64,000 bases of DNA. It comes from an uncultured Gammaproteobacteria bacterium. Lineage in GTDB: Bacteria > Patescibacteriota > Patescibacteriia > UBA11705 > DATKZF01. The notes under the pieces were generated by a model. The model worked only from the letters and a program-made list of their open reading frames with translations. It searched no databases and had not been told where the DNA came from. The translations under genes were made by a program, and so were the position numbers. The stretch's first letter is position 1; every line of letters starts with the position of its first letter. Of this stretch, positions 30,088 to 64,000 are shown in pieces. Location of the stretch: positions 5,547 through 69,546 of the forward strand of contig CAYPKD010000005.1 of assembly GCA_964411255.1 (NCBI GenBank). Reading direction: 5' to 3'.

Positions 30088-30195
30088 GAAAACAGATATT
30101 AATTTGTTTCCGTTTTATATCTGTTGCTATCCGCTTGCCCCGAGCGACCTGTCCTGAGCGAAGTCGAAGGAAGTTGAGGCGTTGATCCGTTTCTA
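30088..30195 (+). repeat. Shared intergenic hairpin element, copy 3 (5' arm deleted, no downstream ORF)
   Basis: AAAACAGAT..TTCCGTTTTATATCTGTTGCTATCCGC.., insertion CGAGCGACCTGTCCTGAGCGAAGTCGAAGG, then GTTGATCCGTTT. Confidence 0.65.
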
Positions 30196-30230
30196 TTAAA
30201 AAACTCTGCATTATTGTAATACAGAGTTAA

Positions 30231-31943
30231 TTATCGGCGTTCACACATGATCCTTGCTTCTTCATAGACTGGTGAATCAGATGGCAATTGCTGTAAGATT
30301 TTTTCAATTTTGCCATCACCATAAGCAGACATTTCAGCTAATTCTCCTAGTGCCCAAATTCTATTATTATTATCTAATTTTTCATTTAATATTAACTGTT
30401 CAAAAGCTTGCTCATCATCAAATTGTCCAATTCTACTGAGAACATCAGTTAATAAATCATTGTCAAATCCACCTAATTCAACATTTTCATTTAGAATTTT
30501 ATCTAATAATATTAAGAATATTTTAACATTTGAGCAATGCTCAATCAATGAAAATTTATACTGATATTCTTCAGTAAGATCTATATCTTCATCATCATCA
30601 TGTAATTGTAGATCTAAGATATCTTTTAATAATTCAAGATCAGTAATATGTTCAGTAACAACCACAGGACGCAAATTACATTCTTCGGTTAAAGCTTTTT
30701 TTAACCATTTAAATAAAATATTTTGGTCTATAAATTGAGCCCTATCCAGCATTTGCTCAAAAAGCCAATCATCATTTTGATCTAATGAATGAGAACAAAG
30801 AGTATCTATATTTTTAGATTTTTTTATTCTTTTTATAGCTAATTGACGCAGATCCTGTTCTTCATCCTGATCTGCAGCAATATCGATAAGCAAATCTTCA
30901 TCTTTTACTTTAGCAATTATAAATCTTTTTGCTTTGATTACATCTTCGTTTTCTTCATCTCCACTTTCATTTTCAAATTTTTTGAAAAATTGATAGCAAT
31001 CAGCAAGTACTTCTGGATCTCTGATTTCTATTAAAGCACGATGTCTTACTTTTACGTGCAATTTCATTTTTGATACTAATTCAAATAATTCTTCATCATT
31101 CAAATCTAATCGAGTTATAGCTTCTATTTTGTGTACAATGTTAATACCCTGAGTAAAAATCATTCTTTTGACTAAATCTGGATCTTTAATCCGATACATA
31201 ACATCTCTGAATAAATATCCACTTTCTGCCCCAAAGTGTTCGAGGATTGTGAAAAGCAGTTCTTCATCTTGAATTTTGTTCATTGCTACGTTAACATACC
31301 CAGATTTAGTAAATGGAGGTTTTTGCTCTGTCACAAATCGAATAAGAAATAGTTCATCATTGATTTTTTCTATTGCTCTTTTTGTAATATCCTCATCAGT
31401 TGAGTTTTGTGCAATTTCTTTTAGAATATTTTCGTATTCATCATCAATAAAGTCCATTGCCTCACAATTTGCCTGTTCAATTGCCAAATATTTAAATAAA
31501 CCTTGAATTCCATGATAATCCAACATTGCAGTAATTTTTCTATCCCAGGGAATGAAAACAAAAGTTAATTTTCTGTCTTGCAATACTTGTAATTTTAATC
31601 CGCGAGAGGTTTCTCCTAATACCAGACCAATAGTGTAATCATCTTTTTCTGCTGTATCCTGAAAGGACACTATTGTATCAGGTGGAAATAAATAATCATC
31701 AAATCCCAGATCTTCCAGAGTTCTGCTACACATACTTTGAAAAAGTTTAATTGCCACCTTTTTTTGTCTGGGAGTCATTTGTTGATCTGCTTGCAGATCA
31801 ACTCTAACCTGAAGTCCAACATCTGTGTTTGAGATATCGCTTGGTCTATAGCGTTTAATAATTTTTCTGCCAGATTTAGCGACTACTACGGTTCGCCAGA
31901 TTGTATTATCTGAATCTGATGTCCAGAACTGTCGTTCGCTCAT
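30231..31943 (-). CDS. 570-aa alpha-helical repeat protein (HEAT/ARM-like I-x-D-x-x-L-L repeats)
   Basis: SD AAGGAG. Recurring IQDEELLFTILE, IKDPDLVKRMIF, VKDEDLLIDIAADQ..LRQLAIKRI, ITDLELLKDILD. Confidence 0.8.
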   Translation of the reverse strand: MSERQFWTSDSDNTIWRTVVVAKSGRKIIKRYRPSDISNTDVGLQVRVDLQADQQMTPRQKKVAIKLFQSMCSRTLEDLGFDDYLFPPDTIVSFQDTAEKDDYTIGLVLGETSRGLKLQVLQDRKLTFVFIPWDRKITAMLDYHGIQGLFKYLAIEQANCEAMDFIDDEYENILKEIAQNSTDEDITKRAIEKINDELFLIRFVTEQKPPFTKSGYVNVAMNKIQDEELLFTILEHFGAESGYLFRDVMYRIKDPDLVKRMIFTQGINIVHKIEAITRLDLNDEELFELVSKMKLHVKVRHRALIEIRDPEVLADCYQFFKKFENESGDEENEDVIKAKRFIIAKVKDEDLLIDIAADQDEEQDLRQLAIKRIKKSKNIDTLCSHSLDQNDDWLFEQMLDRAQFIDQNILFKWLKKALTEECNLRPVVVTEHITDLELLKDILDLQLHDDDEDIDLTEEYQYKFSLIEHCSNVKIFLILLDKILNENVELGGFDNDLLTDVLSRIGQFDDEQAFEQLILNEKLDNNNRIWALGELAEMSAYGDGKIEKILQQLPSDSPVYEEARIMCERR

Positions 31944-32191
31944 TAGCTTCTCCTTATGGCAGGTTTGTTATTAAGCAAGCGTCCTTGCAAAGCAGGGCTG
32001 TCCAGCAGAGATGACTGGATAGCAAAATACAGGTCCCAAAAGGGAAAATTGTAAATGTGCAGGCCTTCTTGACGTCTCAAGAAAAGGCAAAAATAAATGA
32101 AAAATCACTTGCTTTTGCCTTTTCTTGTTTGAGTAAAGTTAACATTTAATATTGCTAGTGTCAAGCATGTATATAAATAAAATAGCCTTTT

Positions 32192-32351
32192 AAAAAACAG
32201 GCCCGTTAGGCCTGATTTAATCTTTTTCAATTTCGGCTTGTGCCGACCTACTTTTTGCTGCCAAAAAGTAGGCAAAAAGCACTGGGGGGCTTCAAATGCG
32301 AAGCAACGATTAAGTTTGAGGATCGCCCCAAGGGCAATCAGCCCCCCAGAC
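32192..32351 (-). ncRNA. Candidate about 160-nt small RNA (unknown family)
   Basis: Weak promoter (TTGTAA, 15 nt, TAGAAT at 32357-32383). 10-bp closing stem 32282-32291/32340-32349 with two inner hairpins. 11-bp hairpin CCTACTTTTTG/CAAAAAGTAGG. TCGGC-ACAA-GCCGA. Terminator CAGGCC-TAACG-GGCCTG plus TTTTTT. Confidence 0.4.
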
Positions 32352-32385
32352 CCCCGATTCTATTGACGAATTATTTTTTACAAAA

Positions 32386-32412
32386 GACCACCAGTTTCCT
32401 GGTGGCTTTTAT
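32386..32412. terminator. Bidirectional Rho-independent terminator
   Basis: GACCACCAG-TTTC-CTGGTGGC, with T-runs on both strands, directly after the stop of 32409..32744. Confidence 0.7.
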
Positions 32413-32744
32413 TCTAATTCCTTTCTCAATTTTTTTATTTCTGCTTCAGTATCTTTTGATTTATCTTGTTTTTTTACATCTATTATTCTTTGAGTTAACA
32501 TTTGTTGTGATTTTGCCAGAGCTGCTTGACGATTTGTTTTTATTTGTTCATGCATTTTTTTAGCTTCTGCTACTTGTTTTTGAGCCAGTTCTTCAAGTTC
32601 TTGAGGAGTTTTTGTTTGCATTTCAATAATTAAGTTTAATTCATCTTCAGTCAGATCTTTAGCCATTGAAAGCAACTTGTCTTTTTTTGCTTTTGGCAAA
32701 TTTGATTTTTTTATTTGAGTAATTATTTTCTTTTTTTTATCCAT
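32409..32744 (-). CDS. 111-aa Lys/Glu-rich coiled-coil protein
   Basis: Start is 1 nt from the upstream stop (translational coupling). No family recognised. Confidence 0.65.
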   Translation of the reverse strand: MDKKKKIITQIKKSNLPKAKKDKLLSMAKDLTEDELNLIIEMQTKTPQELEELAQKQVAEAKKMHEQIKTNRQAALAKSQQMLTQRIIDVKKQDKSKDTEAEIKKLRKELE

Positions 32745-33140: not shown

Positions 33141-33350
33141 CAAACAAAAAACAGCCTGCCAAAGAGACTGTTTTTTGATATTATCATTGGGATTACTGAT
33201 TTGATATTACTCTAACATCACACTGTTGCCAAGAAAAGATAGTTGGAGAGAGGTTTAAAGAACATCTATCTCTTTTGGCAAGCAGTGTGATGCCAAAGTT
33301 TGTTTACAAACTCCAGAGGAATTAGGAGCAGATGAGTGCTCCTAAAGGAA
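33141..33350 (-). ncRNA. Hairpin-dense 3' UTR or candidate sRNA downstream of the DHH-like gene
   Basis: AGGAGCA-GATGA-GTGCTCCT, AGTTTG-TTTA-CAAACT, a long imperfect hairpin 33216-33242/33266-33292 (about 23 bp), then terminator 33146-33176 with T-run on the minus strand. Confidence 0.4.
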
Positions 33351-33353
33351 AGA

Positions 33354-34199
33354 TTAGGAAAAGAGAGAATTGGCAGTTTCTGCCAGTTTGACAGGATCTA
33401 CGTTGGAAGGACTGGTAGCCGGAGCCTTTCTGGTACCGCGACTGAAAAGAAATCCTGAAGAATGGGCAAACCATTGATCCAGTTCACCCTGCTGTTCAAC
33501 TATTTCTCGAAGCTGGGGATGATCCATGCGCAAAGTCTGTGATCCCTCGCGGAAAATACCCAGACTATGGCCGTCTACGTAGACAATGGCTTTTACACCA
33601 CGCTCAAACAAAACATATGAGGTGGCGCAGTGTCGCATGTTTCTGAGAATAGCCACATTGTCTCCAGGCAAAATTTCAGCCTCATTAGCTTCAATCTTAG
33701 CCATTTGACGGGATCGGCCAGCTTTCAGCATACCATCAAAGATTTCTGACATGCATTCGATAACAGTATCGTCCCGGCCAGGAAAAATAGACTGGAAAGC
33801 ACGAAGTACTGAATTGATGCCGGTCAGCGAGAAGATTTGCTGCGCTTCATCATTGATTTCAGGCGCCAGGAATTTGACAGCAGAGCCATGAGCATCCTGG
33901 GCATCAATGAATGTAACCAGCGGAGCAAGAGCTTCCTGGTCATTTTTTGAAGCCAGTTTTGAAATGATAGTGGCAAAACAGGAATGTACTGTGCCATCAT
34001 CATCTTTTTTGCCTTTTACTCCTTTGCCGCCAGCTTCAATGTCAACGGCAACAGCTTTATCCTCATTGAGTCCAGTCCCGTCCCAGTTAGCTGGGCGGAA
34101 ACAAACTTCAGCATCCATGTATGCTTCAGCAAAAGTACGGATAGCCCATACAGATGCCACCGCATCAAGGTCCACGTTCATGTGGGTAAAAATTTTCAT
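33354..34199 (-). CDS. DHH-superfamily-like phosphoesterase (divergent)
   Basis: SD AAAGAGAGG. Motif I-like THMNVDLDAVAS, AVAVDIEAGG, FIDAQDAHG (DHH appears as DAH), FAHSSGF near the C-terminus. Confidence 0.55.
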   Translation of the reverse strand: MKIFTHMNVDLDAVASVWAIRTFAEAYMDAEVCFRPANWDGTGLNEDKAVAVDIEAGGKGVKGKKDDDGTVHSCFATIISKLASKNDQEALAPLVTFIDAQDAHGSAVKFLAPEINDEAQQIFSLTGINSVLRAFQSIFPGRDDTVIECMSEIFDGMLKAGRSRQMAKIEANEAEILPGDNVAILRNMRHCATSYVLFERGVKAIVYVDGHSLGIFREGSQTLRMDHPQLREIVEQQGELDQWFAHSSGFLFSRGTRKAPATSPSNVDPVKLAETANSLFS

Positions 34200-34739: not shown

Positions 34740-35100
34740 TCCAAATAAGTTTTAGAAACTTTGAGAGATCGGAGAGTGCAGTGCTCACTCTCCGATGTCC
34801 GTTGCTTTAACCCGTAGGAGGCAGCTTTAGGTGCCTATGCGTTTTAAGGATGCAAGCGTTAAAGATCTCGGCTTGTTCATCCTGTTACCCATCCCCACTA
34901 GAGGATGTATTGGGTGGTTAGCAGAATTTTATACAGGCGCCTCTGCCAGGGCGCAGATGTAAACACATTGATGACAGATTATTATCTCTTGCCACCAAAT
35001 TAATGTTGTGAAGAGCCTTGTTGCTCTTCTCTGAATTCTGAAAATAAATTTCAGAACTCGGAGAAGCTGAGGATGGTTTGACGCATCCTCAGATATTTCC
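34740..35100. other. ORF-free G+C-rich segment with at least 8 stable hairpins (unknown structured RNA or element)
   Basis: Hairpins at 34768-34796 (11 bp perfect), 34813-34841, 34848-34882, 34888-34914, 34937-34954, 35010-35029, 35031-35061 and 35067-35092. Stops occur in all frames. Confidence 0.4.
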
Positions 35101-35126
35101 TTTCTTAAAATTTGGAGGTGAATAAC

Positions 35127-35567
35127 CTAGGCCTCTTTGTTTTGGCTCTGAGCTTCAGCTTCTGCCTGGGCCTTGGCCTGCTTGAGTGCAGCCTTGGCTT
35201 TGGCTTCAGCTTCGGCCTGCTTGCGCTTTTCAGCGTCAAGTTTGGCCAGACCACCGAGGCCTGTGTTGGGCGCACCACCAGCGCGGCTGGAGCCCTGCCG
35301 TCGGCGCTTGATTTCCAAGCGCTTGAAGCGGGGATCACCATGCTGATGCTTTGCCTGGCGGCGGCGCTGGTTGCGGCGCTGGCGGCGCAGATTACGCTTG
35401 GCGCGAAGTTCATCACGCTCAACCTTGACCTGCGCACGTCGCTCAGCATTCTCAGCTTTGCGAACCAGCTCCTGCCATTTCTTCAGGCCACCATGACGGC
35501 CGCAGAAACCGCGGCCAGCCAGGACATCAGCCGTACACCCGTCATGCTTACACTTTTCCACCTTCAT
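35127..35567 (-). CDS. 146-aa Zn-knuckle (C-x4-C-x10-C-x2-H) plus Arg-rich plus Ala/Lys/Glu-tail protein, probable nucleic-acid binder
   Basis: SD GGGAGG 5 nt before the ATG. Contains EKCKHDGCTADVLAGRGFCGRHGG and RRQRRNQRRRQAKH. Chosen over two overlapping ORFs that lack signals. Confidence 0.6.
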   Translation of the reverse strand: MKVEKCKHDGCTADVLAGRGFCGRHGGLKKWQELVRKAENAERRAQVKVERDELRAKRNLRRQRRNQRRRQAKHQHGDPRFKRLEIKRRRQGSSRAGGAPNTGLGGLAKLDAEKRKQAEAEAKAKAALKQAKAQAEAEAQSQNKEA

Positions 35568-35620
35568 GTGGGCCTCCCTATATAAAAAGATTAATAGACA
35601 TTTTTGTCAAAATTGCTGAA

Positions 35621-35766
35621 AGGACGATGTAGGTGAGATGCCAAAGAGATTTGAAGGGACTTAAATAGATTTATTTCCCTTATCTCAATATGGGCAAAAT
35701 ATGCTCAGCCAATCTAATCGCAAGCGAATAGATCAGCATGAACTTCTCTCTCCTCTACATCGTTCT
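35621..35766. other. About 145-nt three-way-junction-like element
   Basis: AGGACGATGTAGGTGAGA (35621-) pairs with TCTCTCCTCTACATCGTTCT (-35766). Inner hairpins are GAGAT..AAGGGA/TCCCTT..ATCTC and CTAATCG-CAAG-CGAATAG. Confidence 0.4.
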
Positions 35767-35780
35767 GTTCAGAAATTAGA

Positions 35781-35815
35781 CATATAAAAACAGACTGAGA
35801 GAACCATGTCTGTTT
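35781..35815 (-). terminator. Terminator-like hairpin inside the long leader (possible attenuator or sRNA 3' end)
   Basis: Minus strand reads AAACAGAC-ATGGTTCTCTCA-GTCTGTTT followed by TTATAT. Confidence 0.4.
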
Positions 35816-38151: not shown

Positions 38152-38762
38152 GATCCAAACAGGTCTATAAGCCGAATTCTGTCCCACCAGAGGCGGGGAT
38201 GATCATCTATCTAGTCCCGAGATTACTCTCGGGATCAAGCGAGCTACCAAACTTGCTCTTGCACCAGATAAGGTTTACCACCACCTAATGTTACCATTAG
38301 GCAAGAGAAGTATAAATTAAATAGTCACGTGAACCATTTAACTTTTTTCCTTCTCACTTTTCACCTTTCACCACTGCTACGCAGTGGAATTTCTAAATCC
38401 TAATTTTTTAAACTCTGAACAATTTTCAAATTTTCGAAAGGTTTTAAACATTAGAACATTTGAATTTCGAATTTGTTTAGAATTTCGTATTTCGAATTTA
38501 GCGCTTCCATTGCGCAACAATGGCTAGTATAGTCTCTGTGGCACTGGCTGTCGTCTAGGTTTATTAATTATCCTAGAATCGCCTGGGAGTTACCCAGTAT
38601 CATACCGCAGATTACGCTGATTAGCCGATTACGCAGATTGCAGGACTTTTTTTTATCAGCGTAATCAGCGTAATCTACGGTCAGGTGTTCGGACTTTCCT
38701 CCGGCCTACGCTTTTCACTTTGTTCAAAGCTTCGGCTGGCGATCATCCAACCTATTTGGATC
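38152..38762 (-). ncRNA. rnpB: RNase P RNA (bacterial type A core) with large insertions, about 611 nt
   Basis: Minus strand has GGAGGAAAGTCCGAACAC (CR-I/P4 5'), GTGCCACAGAGAC, GGTAAACC and ACAGAATTCGGCTTATAG (CR-V/P4 3'). P1 pairs GATCCAAATAGGT with ACCTGTTTGGATC; P2 pairs GGATGATC with GATCATCC. Confidence 0.88.
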
Positions 38763-62577: not shown

Positions 62578-62626
62578 TGAATTACCGTGTTCTTTGAATA
62601 AAACCTCTTTGGGAAAGGGAAAAATC

Positions 62627-64000
62627 ATGCTTGATCTGAAGCGAAAAAAGCGCCGTAAGCCAAGAACTGAATTTAAGTATGAAGATTTTCGTGTTGTGAC
62701 TGAGCTTGATGTTCATCTGGCTCAGTACCTGCGGACTTTTCTTCACATTGACATTAGTCAATGGAATTTTTGCATGGATATTATCCGCCAGGGCCGGGCT
62801 TATACAACTGAGCTGCGGTCAAAAGGCAAAGGCAAAGGTACTCGAAAAATCTATAAGCCGCACAATGCGCTTAAAGTAGTGCAGCGGGCAATTAAGAACC
62901 GGATTCTAAAGCAGATCCCTGTTCATTTTGCCAGACATGGCGGGCCAGACGGCACCAGTACGATGACCAATGTGGCTCAGCATGCTGGATTTGCCAAAGC
63001 AGTTTTTTCTGTTGATCTGGTCAATGCCTATCCGTCAGTAACCCGTTATCGGGTAAAAAGAAATTTGGAAAAGCCGATTTCTTTTCTGCTAAAGCAGTTT
63101 ATGGGAGTGGAATTTTCAAAAGACGATGTTGAAAAAATGATTGAAGCAATTTGCGATTTGACATGTTACCATGATCGGGTGCAGCAGGGATTGCCATCTT
63201 CAGCAAGAATGTTGGACATTTGTTGCATGAAGCTGGATATGGACATTTTCAAGCTTCTTCATGACCAATCTTCTGCATTGCAGAAGTATCGGTATACTGC
63301 TTTTGTAGATGATCTGACAATTTCATCAAATGATGAAATTACAATTGAACTGATGCAGCAAATCATCGATACGATTGAAGCCAATGGCTTTATTCCCCAC
63401 ATAAGAAAAGATAAGACAAAGTATTTCAGCCGAAAAAGTGGTGAAGTGCCAGAGGTAACTGGCTTGGTAGTTAATGATGATGGCCGTATCACTATGGCTA
63501 AGGGAAAAGTCAACCAGATCAGGGGTACGCTTTTCAATATTTGCAAGCAAGTCAAATGGACAGAAGAAGACTTGAATAGAGTTAGGGGCCTGATCGCCTA
63601 TGTTAATATGGTTTACCCTGACAAGTTGCCCAGCAAGCTGAAAAAGATTGTTGATGCAGCGCAATTGCGAGTCAAAGCTGAACAGCTTGCCAGATTTAGC
63701 AGTTCTAAACCTGTTGAATTTTCAGCAGCGCAGGACGATGATGAAAAAGAAGTTGTCTCAGGTATTCTGTACACTGACGGCGCTTCTAAAAAGGGAATCG
63801 GAACTGTCGGAGTGGTGCTGCAAAAAGAAGGCAGAGTGGTGCGTGAGATTTCCAGTGTGATTGGCGCTGCCACAAATAATCAGGCTGAATATCAAGCCTT
63901 GATTACTGGTATGGAAGCAGCGCTTGAAGAAAATGTTACTGCTCTTGATTGTTTTTTTGACAGCAAGCTGATCTATAATCAGTTGAGCAAGAGTAATAAA
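62627..64000 (+). CDS. Retron-type reverse transcriptase fused to RNase HI-like domain, 3'-truncated by window edge
   Basis: My own translation: 458 codons open from ATG 62627 to nt 64000. RT motifs RKIYKPHNALKVVQRAIKNRIL, TNVAQH, SVDLVNAYPSV, QGLPSSARML, YTAFVDDLTISS, EVTGLVVN. From about aa 378: ILYTDGAS..ATNNQAEYQALITGMEAA..FFDSKLIYNQL. Confidence 0.88.
   Translation, partial: MLDLKRKKRRKPRTEFKYEDFRVVTELDVHLAQYLRTFLHIDISQWNFCMDIIRQGRAYTTELRSKGKGKGTRKIYKPHNALKVVQRAIKNRILKQIPVHFARHGGPDGTSTMTNVAQHAGFAKAVFSVDLVNAYPSVTRYRVKRNLEKPISFLLKQFMGVEFSKDDVEKMIEAICDLTCYHDRVQQGLPSSARMLDICCMKLDMDIFKLLHDQSSALQKYRYTAFVDDLTISSNDEITIELMQQIIDTIEANGFIPHIRKDKTKYFSRKSGEVPEVTGLVVNDDGRITMAKGKVNQIRGTLFNICKQVKWTEEDLNRVRGLIAYVNMVYPDKLPSKLKKIVDAAQLRVKAEQLARFSSSKPVEFSAAQDDDEKEVVSGILYTDGASKKGIGTVGVVLQKEGRVVREISSVIGAATNNQAEYQALITGMEAALEENVTALDCFFDSKLIYNQLSKSNK

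Follow-up and report, generated by a model that had tools for sequence, protein, structure and literature searches.

This locus raises the question of what is encoded in a short intergenic interval on the minus strand of a 64,000-nucleotide (nt) stretch of contig CAYPKD010000005.1 (assembly GCA_964411255.1; the whole stretch is hereafter called the window). The window is part of a bacterial chromosome, with rpoC, ftsH, infB, leuS, purA, RNase J, uvrA and a CCA-adding-enzyme-type nucleotidyltransferase, and the relatives of its glycosyltransferase are nearly all from metagenome-assembled genomes (MAGs) of Patescibacteria, the closest at 78% amino-acid identity. A preliminary description of the interval had proposed an independently transcribed small RNA (sRNA) that could be assigned to no family. 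We consider, with a probability of roughly 60%, that positions 32362-32192 (minus strand) constitute a stand-alone gene for a structured sRNA of ~165 nt, which is a member of a multicopy family and probably acts in trans. The family matches no Rfam 15 model and is found in a narrow lineage of Patescibacteria (the candidate phyla radiation, CPR), in two related species.

The copy in the window, which we term copy A, begins with a -10-like box TAGAAT (32362-32357), read where it had been noted earlier, that ends 1 nt ahead of a run of G. The weak -35-like TTGTAA reported with it is indeed present 15 nt upstream (32383-32378); our promoter scan, which demands a spacer of 16-18 nt, therefore passes over the site, and the other copies do not keep this hexamer. 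The run of G opens the 5' strands of a closing helix (32355-32340), made up of P0 (GGGGGU, 32355-32350) and P1 (CUGGGGGGCU, 32349-32340), which include the family signature GGGGUCUGGGG. Their 3' partners lie at 32291-32275 and consist of P1 (AGCCCCCCAG, 32291-32282), a bulged U (32281) and P0 (GCUUUU, 32280-32275). The 10-bp closing helix of the preliminary description, in which CTGGGGGGCT pairs with AGCCCCCCAG, thus corresponds to P1, and its 8-bp hairpin, in which GATTGCCC (32339-32332) pairs with GGGCGATC (32328-32321), to hairpin P2 (GAUUGCCC-UUG-GGGCGAUC, 32339-32321). The core AUUGC/GCGAU of P2 is common to all copies of the subtype to which copy A belongs (type I, see below). Directly 3' of P2 is a 10-nt patch, CCUCAAACUU (32321-32312), which differs among the type I copies, and then a junction, AAUCGUUGCUUCGCAUUUGA (32311-32292), which is almost invariant in them. 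A further 5-bp hairpin, TCAAA/TTTGA, is present in copy A as described but is not maintained in every copy. After the closing helix come the 11-bp perfect hairpin H2 (32272-32247; CCTACTTTTTG-GCAG-CAAAAAGTAGG in the DNA, CCUACUUUUUG-GCAG-CAAAAAGUAGG in the RNA) and hairpin H3 (UCGGC-ACAA-GCCGA, 32246-32233), followed by an unpaired A/U-rich linker (32232-32215) with AUUGAAAA at 32231-32224. The unit is closed by an intrinsic terminator, CAGGCC-UAACG-GGCCUG (32214-32198) plus U6 (32197-32192), which the terminator scan also finds on the minus strand. RNAfold reproduced the proposed structure, with a minimum free energy (MFE) of -71.5 kcal/mol for the 171-nt unit against -52.2 +/- 4.5 for 200 dinucleotide shuffles (z = -4.31), none of which folded as well; the 127-nt core of copy A gave z = -4.78 against its shuffles.

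The unit had been treated as a singleton, but searches for homologues show that copy A is one of at least seven diverged copies. We recognized seven distinct full copies, of which A, B, C, F and G belong to the species of the window and D and E to a sister species, along with one conserved partial copy. When a 22-mer of the junction region was scanned against metagenomes, a single contig (L093) matched, from the sister species. This contig holds the near-identical copy D, which is cut by the contig end and could be extended in L099; the more divergent full copy E, 2.3 kb upstream of copy D; and a 60-nt fragment consisting of the upstream region and first 27 nt of an E-like copy. The nucleoside triphosphatase (NTPase) gene adjoining copy D was used to retrieve the orthologous locus from the species of the window, which lies on another contig of the same assembly and carries copies F, B and C as well as the same partial copy. 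Copy G was found by following the contig of the window to 8.3 kb past the window end. Every copy is intergenic and occupies its own site among unrelated neighbour genes: copies B, E and F are each arranged divergently with the gene upstream and convergently with the one downstream, and copies C and G are likewise followed by convergent genes. This recurrence as a stand-alone element at no fewer than six other intergenic sites supports the earlier reading of copy A as an independent transcription unit.

Beyond these two species the family was not encountered. No copy was found by nhmmer, motif searches or covariance-model searches in 80 other Patescibacteria loci gathered through synteny with the glycosyltransferase, among which the best stray match (L071, 18 bits) has no appearance of homology; nor was there a match in viral contigs, phages or plasmids, or anything resembling the family in the full-text literature. 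Short-read contigs from several samples end inside copies (L005, L006, L002, L096-L098, L102 and L103). In the case of copy A, Logan contigs stop at 32297 and restart at 32271, which could be taken for a polymorphic 25-nt segment; we rejected this, as other contigs end inside other copies, and attribute the breaks to paralogous copies that share and then lose identical k-mers.

The copies share a common plan: a -10-like box, the 5' signature GGGGUCUGGGG, the closing helix P0/P1 with its one-base bulge, a variable interior, and then H2, the G+C-rich H3, an optional H4, an unpaired motif and a 3' hairpin or terminator. The signature is invariant at the 5' end of all copies, GGGGTCTGGGG is invariant in 7/7 full copies and in the partial copies, and the 3' strand of P0/P1 reads CCCCAG-NN-(C/G)UUUUU across the copies, again with the one-base bulge. 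H3 takes the form UUGGC-GCAA-GCCAA or UCGGC-GCAA-GCCGA outside copy A, and the extra hairpin H4 is seen in copies B and D. The motif AUUG[ACUG]AAA, as read from the sequences, precedes the 3' hairpin in B, C, D, G and E, with a variant AUUAAUGAAAA in F.

By their interiors the copies fall into two subtypes. Type I (A, B, C, D and G) has the P2 hairpin and the conserved junction AAUC..CUUCGCAUUUGA, and its members differ mostly in the P2 loop and the 10-nt patch 3' of P2. The loop region reads CCUUGGG in A, CCCGGA in C, CCCAGA in D, CCGAUGC in B and CCCUGGC in G, and the patch, with both of its flanks conserved, reads CCUCAAACUU in A, C and D, ACCUGCACAU in B and AUUUGAACUC in G. This pattern makes the patch a candidate specificity or seed segment. 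In type II (E and F) the interior is replaced by a long irregular hairpin, and the UCAAA and AUCGU motifs are shared in this interior. Core identity is 66-94% among type I copies, 86% between E and F, and 44-65% between the types. The two subtypes also meet at individual loci. In both species a full type I copy is preceded, at a distance of ~60 nt, by a truncated type II copy (L094/L095:10595-10620; L099:4677-4700), and one orthologous site with identical flanks holds type I in the species of the window and type II in the sister species (L094:7590-7985 vs L100:2311-2676). The latter swap points to cassette replacement.

The homologues further allowed us to examine the fold for covariation, and the helices were found to be maintained by compensatory changes. 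On an alignment of all seven copies to a covariance model, with a consensus of 32 pairs, 91.9% of the cells are paired vs 43-61% when the partners are slid, and 12 of the 32 pairs change on both sides; 0/500 shuffles reach the observed values. The core helices in a MAFFT alignment give much the same picture (91.8% of cells paired vs 44-61% slid, 11 pairs with two-sided changes, 0/500 shuffles), and RNAalifold, run on the MAFFT alignment of six copies, predicts P0/P1, H2 and H3, with 14/40 pairs changing on both sides. At the level of single pairs, pair 7 of P1 goes from G-C to U-A in the type II copies, pair 2 of H3 is seen as C-G, U-A or G-U, and 10 of the 11 pairs of H2 have changed on both sides somewhere in the family. 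In type II one A-U pair of H2 is gone, having been lost from both strands, and copy B has at the same position a wholly different hairpin (CCCAGCACCAAA/UUUGGUGCUGGG). Since six further homologues keep the helices with compensatory changes, the structure is more than a product of chance. P0 contains three invariant G-U pairs, from which it follows that the fold exists on the minus strand of the window only. A covariance model (R1) was built from copies A, C, D, E and F; copies B and G, which had no part in building it, reached 83 and 119 bits, respectively, and nothing else matched in 1.35 Mb comprising the window and the 80 other Patescibacteria loci.

The ages of the copies can be gauged from the divergence of orthologues and paralogues. 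Identity between the orthologous copies C and D of the two species is 94-97%, whereas paralogues within one genome differ by 12-56%. Since the orthologues are more alike than the paralogues, the copies have been maintained as separate units from a time before the two species diverged; by these distances the paralogous copies appear old and individually retained, and not the outcome of a recent burst. By comparison, the two species share 61-68% identity in the adjacent NTPase gene, about 61-85% over nearby genes and roughly 76-91% in other coding DNA. The C/D pair has changed less than the genes flanking it, a pattern that points to each copy being under selection.

As for transcription, the -10-like box is TAGAAT in copy A, TAGCAT in C, D and G and TAGAAA in B, at an equal distance from the G run, giving a type I consensus of TAGNAW placed 1 nt before that run; homology between type I copies starts sharply ~11 nt upstream of it. 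A CAGGC-N4-5-GCCUG hairpin stands in the terminator position of copies B, C, D and G. The best terminator of the family is that of copy A, and copy G has a bidirectional terminator ~40 nt beyond its 3' hairpin. In the region of copy A the terminator scan lists five terminator-like sites vs 1.0 expected, among them that of the upstream operon (32406-32387). It is plausible from these signals that each copy has a -10-type promoter of its own from which transcription starts, and that the transcript stops at the 3' hairpin of that copy. The gene for the RNase P RNA of the same organism has a canonical TTGACA-17-TATAAT promoter, so that the -35 of copy A is poor by the organism's own standard.

To place the family among known RNAs, we used the 4227 covariance models of Rfam 15, at gathering thresholds on the whole window and at E<=10 on positions 31850-32500. 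The former search returned only RNase P (38152-38758); in the latter no family matched, with the 5' domain left uncovered and the overlaps at chance level (Phe_leader, E=4.1; AaHKsRNA82, E=0.22). This agrees with the earlier view that no known family accounts for the unit. Copies B, C and F likewise had no Rfam match, and ARAGORN found no transfer or transfer-messenger RNA in the whole window. The family does present several paralogous stand-alone copies with a shared scaffold, five full ones in one species and two in the other, as sibling sRNAs do, and, across seven sequences, the compensatory substitutions of a conserved structured RNA. A retron msr/msd was rejected, as the scanned neighbours of copy A have no reverse transcriptase domain (Pfam, E<=0.1), and no RVT family is present among the precomputed Pfam hits of the genes adjoining the other copies; an RVT/RNase H-like gene occurs just once, at the edge of the window, and is separated from copy A by ~30 kb and from copy G by ~8 kb. 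An integron attC site was also rejected: the closing strands GGGGUCUGGGG... and ...CCCCAGNNCUUUUU are without RYYYAAC/GTTRRRY cores, and there is no integrase among the neighbour genes.

Because copy A lies upstream of the co-oriented 570-aa gene, its relation to that gene has to be considered separately. The 570-aa gene has its own promoter (TTGACA-17-TAACTT) and its own conserved leader, and a remote homologue in L104 retains the leader without a copy of the RNA; indeed, among the relatives of the 570-aa gene with readable upstream DNA, the RNA is found in 0/2 (L104 by covariance-model search, L107 by alignment). These findings bear out the separateness of the unit from the gene. The nearest relative, the sister species represented by L088 (281-aa protein 83% identical), retains the 281-, 121- and 111-aa genes and is without both the RNA and the 570-aa gene, with the 111/121-aa genes directly preceding the glycosyltransferase upstream region. 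From this arrangement, the RNA and the 570-aa gene together form an insertion or deletion of ~2.2 kb (window ~30233-32408 vs L088:2557-2761). At its junction, a segment of ~100 nt (window 30132-30233), with a G+C-rich repeat-like CCTGAGCGAAGTCGAAGG and a terminator hairpin, is inverted between the species.

We envisage the copies as sibling riboregulators acting in trans. The conserved scaffold, namely the P1/P2 junction and H2-H5, would provide stability and perhaps a protein-binding surface, and contact with targets would be made by the copy-specific 10-nt patch with the P2 loop, by the shared unpaired AUUGNAAA motif, or by both. Several points weigh against this reading. What speaks for a transcript are sequence signals alone, the -10-like box and the 3' hairpins, and these are not uniformly strong: the promoter is weak, with conservation of the -10-like box (TAGAAA in copy B) and not of the -35, and copies B and C have just four U after the 3' hairpin and copy G has UAUUG. 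The covariation is drawn from seven sequences of two close species, and much of that in H2 is supplied by copy B by itself. In copies C and D the MFE fold favours a local CUGGGGG/CCCCCAG hairpin over P1. This comes about because the P2 loop of these copies, CCCCCRGAG, resembles the 3' strand of P1 (L099:4757-4800; L094:10679-10720), so that the local hairpin forms in its place; it is possibly an alternative conformation. No convincing target for the patch or the 3' motif was found by RNAduplex or a 12-mer complement search in ~100 kb of this genome, where the best RNAduplex z of about -3 among 68 start regions equals the chance expectation. Finally, the family has traits reminiscent of mobile DNA, such as its multicopy spread, the swap of types, the partial copy beside a full one and the co-absence with the 570-aa gene.

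The lack of an mRNA target in the ~100 kb would also be in keeping with a structured RNA that binds or sequesters a protein, or serves as a ribonucleoprotein scaffold in the manner of Y RNA, 6S or CsrB, with the 5' domain as the protein site instead of pairing with mRNAs. This close alternative has an outside but real chance of being correct. The type I 5' domain is almost invariant in A, C and D in its paired and unpaired nucleotides alike, the P1-P2 junction and AAUC..CUUCGCAUUUGA are kept in all type I copies, and the closing helix has a conserved single-base bulge; moreover, Hfq is said to be rare in CPR, which would also favour such a role. However, none of the copies has a linked gene that might encode such a partner, short binding motifs repeated as in CsrB are absent, and the existence of two subtypes with interiors only 44-65% identical would call for two partners or for a site limited to P0/P1. 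The principal explanation that does not invoke an RNA is a mobile or recombining DNA cassette, akin to repetitive extragenic palindromes (REP) and bacterial interspersed mosaic elements (BIME), to IS200/IS605-derived elements or to miniature inverted-repeat transposable elements (MITE), whose hairpins would be recognized as single-stranded DNA and whose transcription, if any, would be incidental. The multicopy intergenic distribution, the ending of short-read contigs inside copies, type I vs type II between the same flanks at one orthologous site, the 5' type II fragment that precedes a full type I copy by ~60 nt in each species, the joint absence of copy A and the 570-aa gene from the sister species and the abrupt start of type I units ~11 nt ahead of the G run could all be so understood. 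We nevertheless hold it to be improbable, as the junctions read have neither terminal inverted repeats nor target-site duplications, no transposase or integrase is near any copy (and no transposase was seen in ~100 kb), viral contigs, phages and plasmids yielded no member of the family, and the units bear a -10 box and an oriented terminator. Further, the copies have diverged by 12-56%, yet the orthologous pair is more conserved than the flanking genes. A further idea, to which we give little credence, is that these are programmable RNAs, in which a constant scaffold (P0/P1, the P2 core and H2-H5) would display the copy-specific 10-nt patch and loop and so guide a CPR protein to different nucleic-acid targets, or RNA-gene cassettes moving by a form of recombination not yet described; movement of cassettes between intergenic sites would account for the type swap and for the truncated copy beside a full one.

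Two other proposals fare considerably worse. Copy A viewed in isolation, where a domain resembling a three-way junction leads into a terminator ahead of a co-oriented gene, and where the RNA shares the presence/absence pattern of the 570-aa gene in comparison with the sister species, might pass for a cis-acting leader, riboswitch or attenuator of the 570-aa gene and the glycosyltransferase operon. This is most unlikely for the reason that the 570-aa gene has its own promoter and leader, and a homologue in L104 without the RNA, while copies B, E, F, C and G are followed by convergent genes. Further, two perfect hairpins intervene between the junction domain and the terminator with no evident antiterminator pairing, and no cis-regulatory family of Rfam matches. 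The same very low standing applies to a coding reading, in which the unit would specify a small protein such as a type I toxin, or the antisense partner of one. One sense frame is open through 6/6 copies checked, that of type II starts with a hydrophobic stretch (…LIIIIAFVGSGVATQ…), and gene callers have annotated short open reading frames (ORFs) over several copies. Yet no frame keeps its start codon across the copies, in type I a stop closely precedes the open frame and the first possible start is the TTG at 32275, the called ORFs are in differing frames and strands across assemblies, and only 1/7 of them has an exact match in a collection of 15 billion proteins, where it falls in a two-member cluster. 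The helices, moreover, are kept while the peptide is rewritten, with H2 reading CFLPTFWQQKVG in copy A and RFLPSTKTKFGAG in copy B; a coding role therefore seems unlikely.

Returning to the sRNA interpretation, the family itself is new but of a known kind, the structured multicopy sRNAs of bacteria. Sibling sRNA families include Qrr1-5 of Vibrio, Yfr2 of marine cyanobacteria, LhrC1-5 of Listeria and PrrF1/2. Like these, the present family consists of diverged paralogues per genome that are stand-alone, intergenic and provided with their own 3' hairpin, and it combines a shared scaffold and a conserved unpaired motif with copy-specific segments. Unlike them, it is larger and more structured (165-215 nt, 5-6 helices), has two subtypes with different interiors, one orthologous site being occupied by a different subtype in each species, and resembles none of them in sequence or structure, again without an Rfam match. 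With Y RNA/YrlA and 6S RNA it has in common a bulged conserved helix formed by the 5' end and a distal segment around a variable module, as well as high conservation; here, however, the closing helix excludes the 3' end, three or four hairpins come after it, the family is multicopy, there is no match to RF00013 or the Y RNA models, and no Ro/Rsr-like gene is seen near any copy. The elements of the REP/BIME, IS200/IS605-derived and MITE classes are likewise intergenic, hairpin-rich and multicopy, break short-read assemblies and show presence/absence and replacement polymorphism. In contrast to them, the family showed no terminal inverted repeats or target duplications at the junctions read and no cognate transposase in the ~100 kb covered, and it is made up of old, individually conserved copies with one-strand G-U pairs and oriented terminators. 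The likeness to riboswitch or attenuator leaders, a multi-helix junction and then a terminator upstream of a gene, holds for the window copy only, as most copies are without a downstream gene in the same orientation, the logic of an expression platform is absent and Rfam has no matching family.

Copy A sits in a small island of unannotated genes with some features of its own. For the 570-aa protein, a word-indexed search finds only itself, and an exhaustive HMMER search yields 24 remote relatives, mostly over the N-terminal third or half. Its leader of ~140 nt (31944-32165, minus strand; L104:2775-3000), with hairpins CTTGAGACGTCAAG, CCC-N4-GGG, CCAG..CTGG and GCAAGGACGCTTGC, is conserved in the DNA ahead of a homologous gene with a protein identity of just 33%; compensatory changes are seen in some of the stems and Rfam has no match, which makes it a candidate for a new cis-regulatory leader. 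The 281-aa protein (33354-34199, minus strand) has 147 homologues at 40-83% identity, the named ones being from Patescibacteria, and no significant Pfam domain, the one match being a sub-threshold ChrB_C. It is a conserved family for which no Pfam domain predicts a function. The same island has two long imperfect inverted repeats in intergenic DNA (33209-33299 and 35605-35782, with arms of 37 nt and 34 nt) and a segment at 35000-35600 with 55% G+C vs ~33% for the genome and overlapping ORFs on both strands, one of them for a 146-aa K/R/A-rich protein with an N-terminal zinc-finger-like motif, CxxxGC...GFCxxHGG. Elsewhere, the class A RNase P RNA (38152-38758, minus strand; 139.6 bits) is 607 nt long vs 367 positions in the model, with several large A/T-rich insertions. 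At the right end, a 530-aa gene (~62609-64000, plus strand, continuing past the window end; L105:8291-9883) has RNase H, RVT_3 and weak RVT_1 Pfam matches and adjoins, beyond the window, a 2.9-kb stretch without a called gene (L105:5414-8291).

The CPR/Patescibacteria have tiny genomes with few recognizable regulators, and their regulatory RNAs appear little studied. The family is conserved, multicopy and more strongly constrained than the protein genes beside it. As several loci of a very small genome are devoted to one RNA design, it offers a concrete entry point to RNA regulation, or to an RNA-protein machine, in the CPR. On the practical side, the copies break short-read assemblies and draw spurious ORF calls in MAGs, and a covariance model for them would therefore improve annotation.

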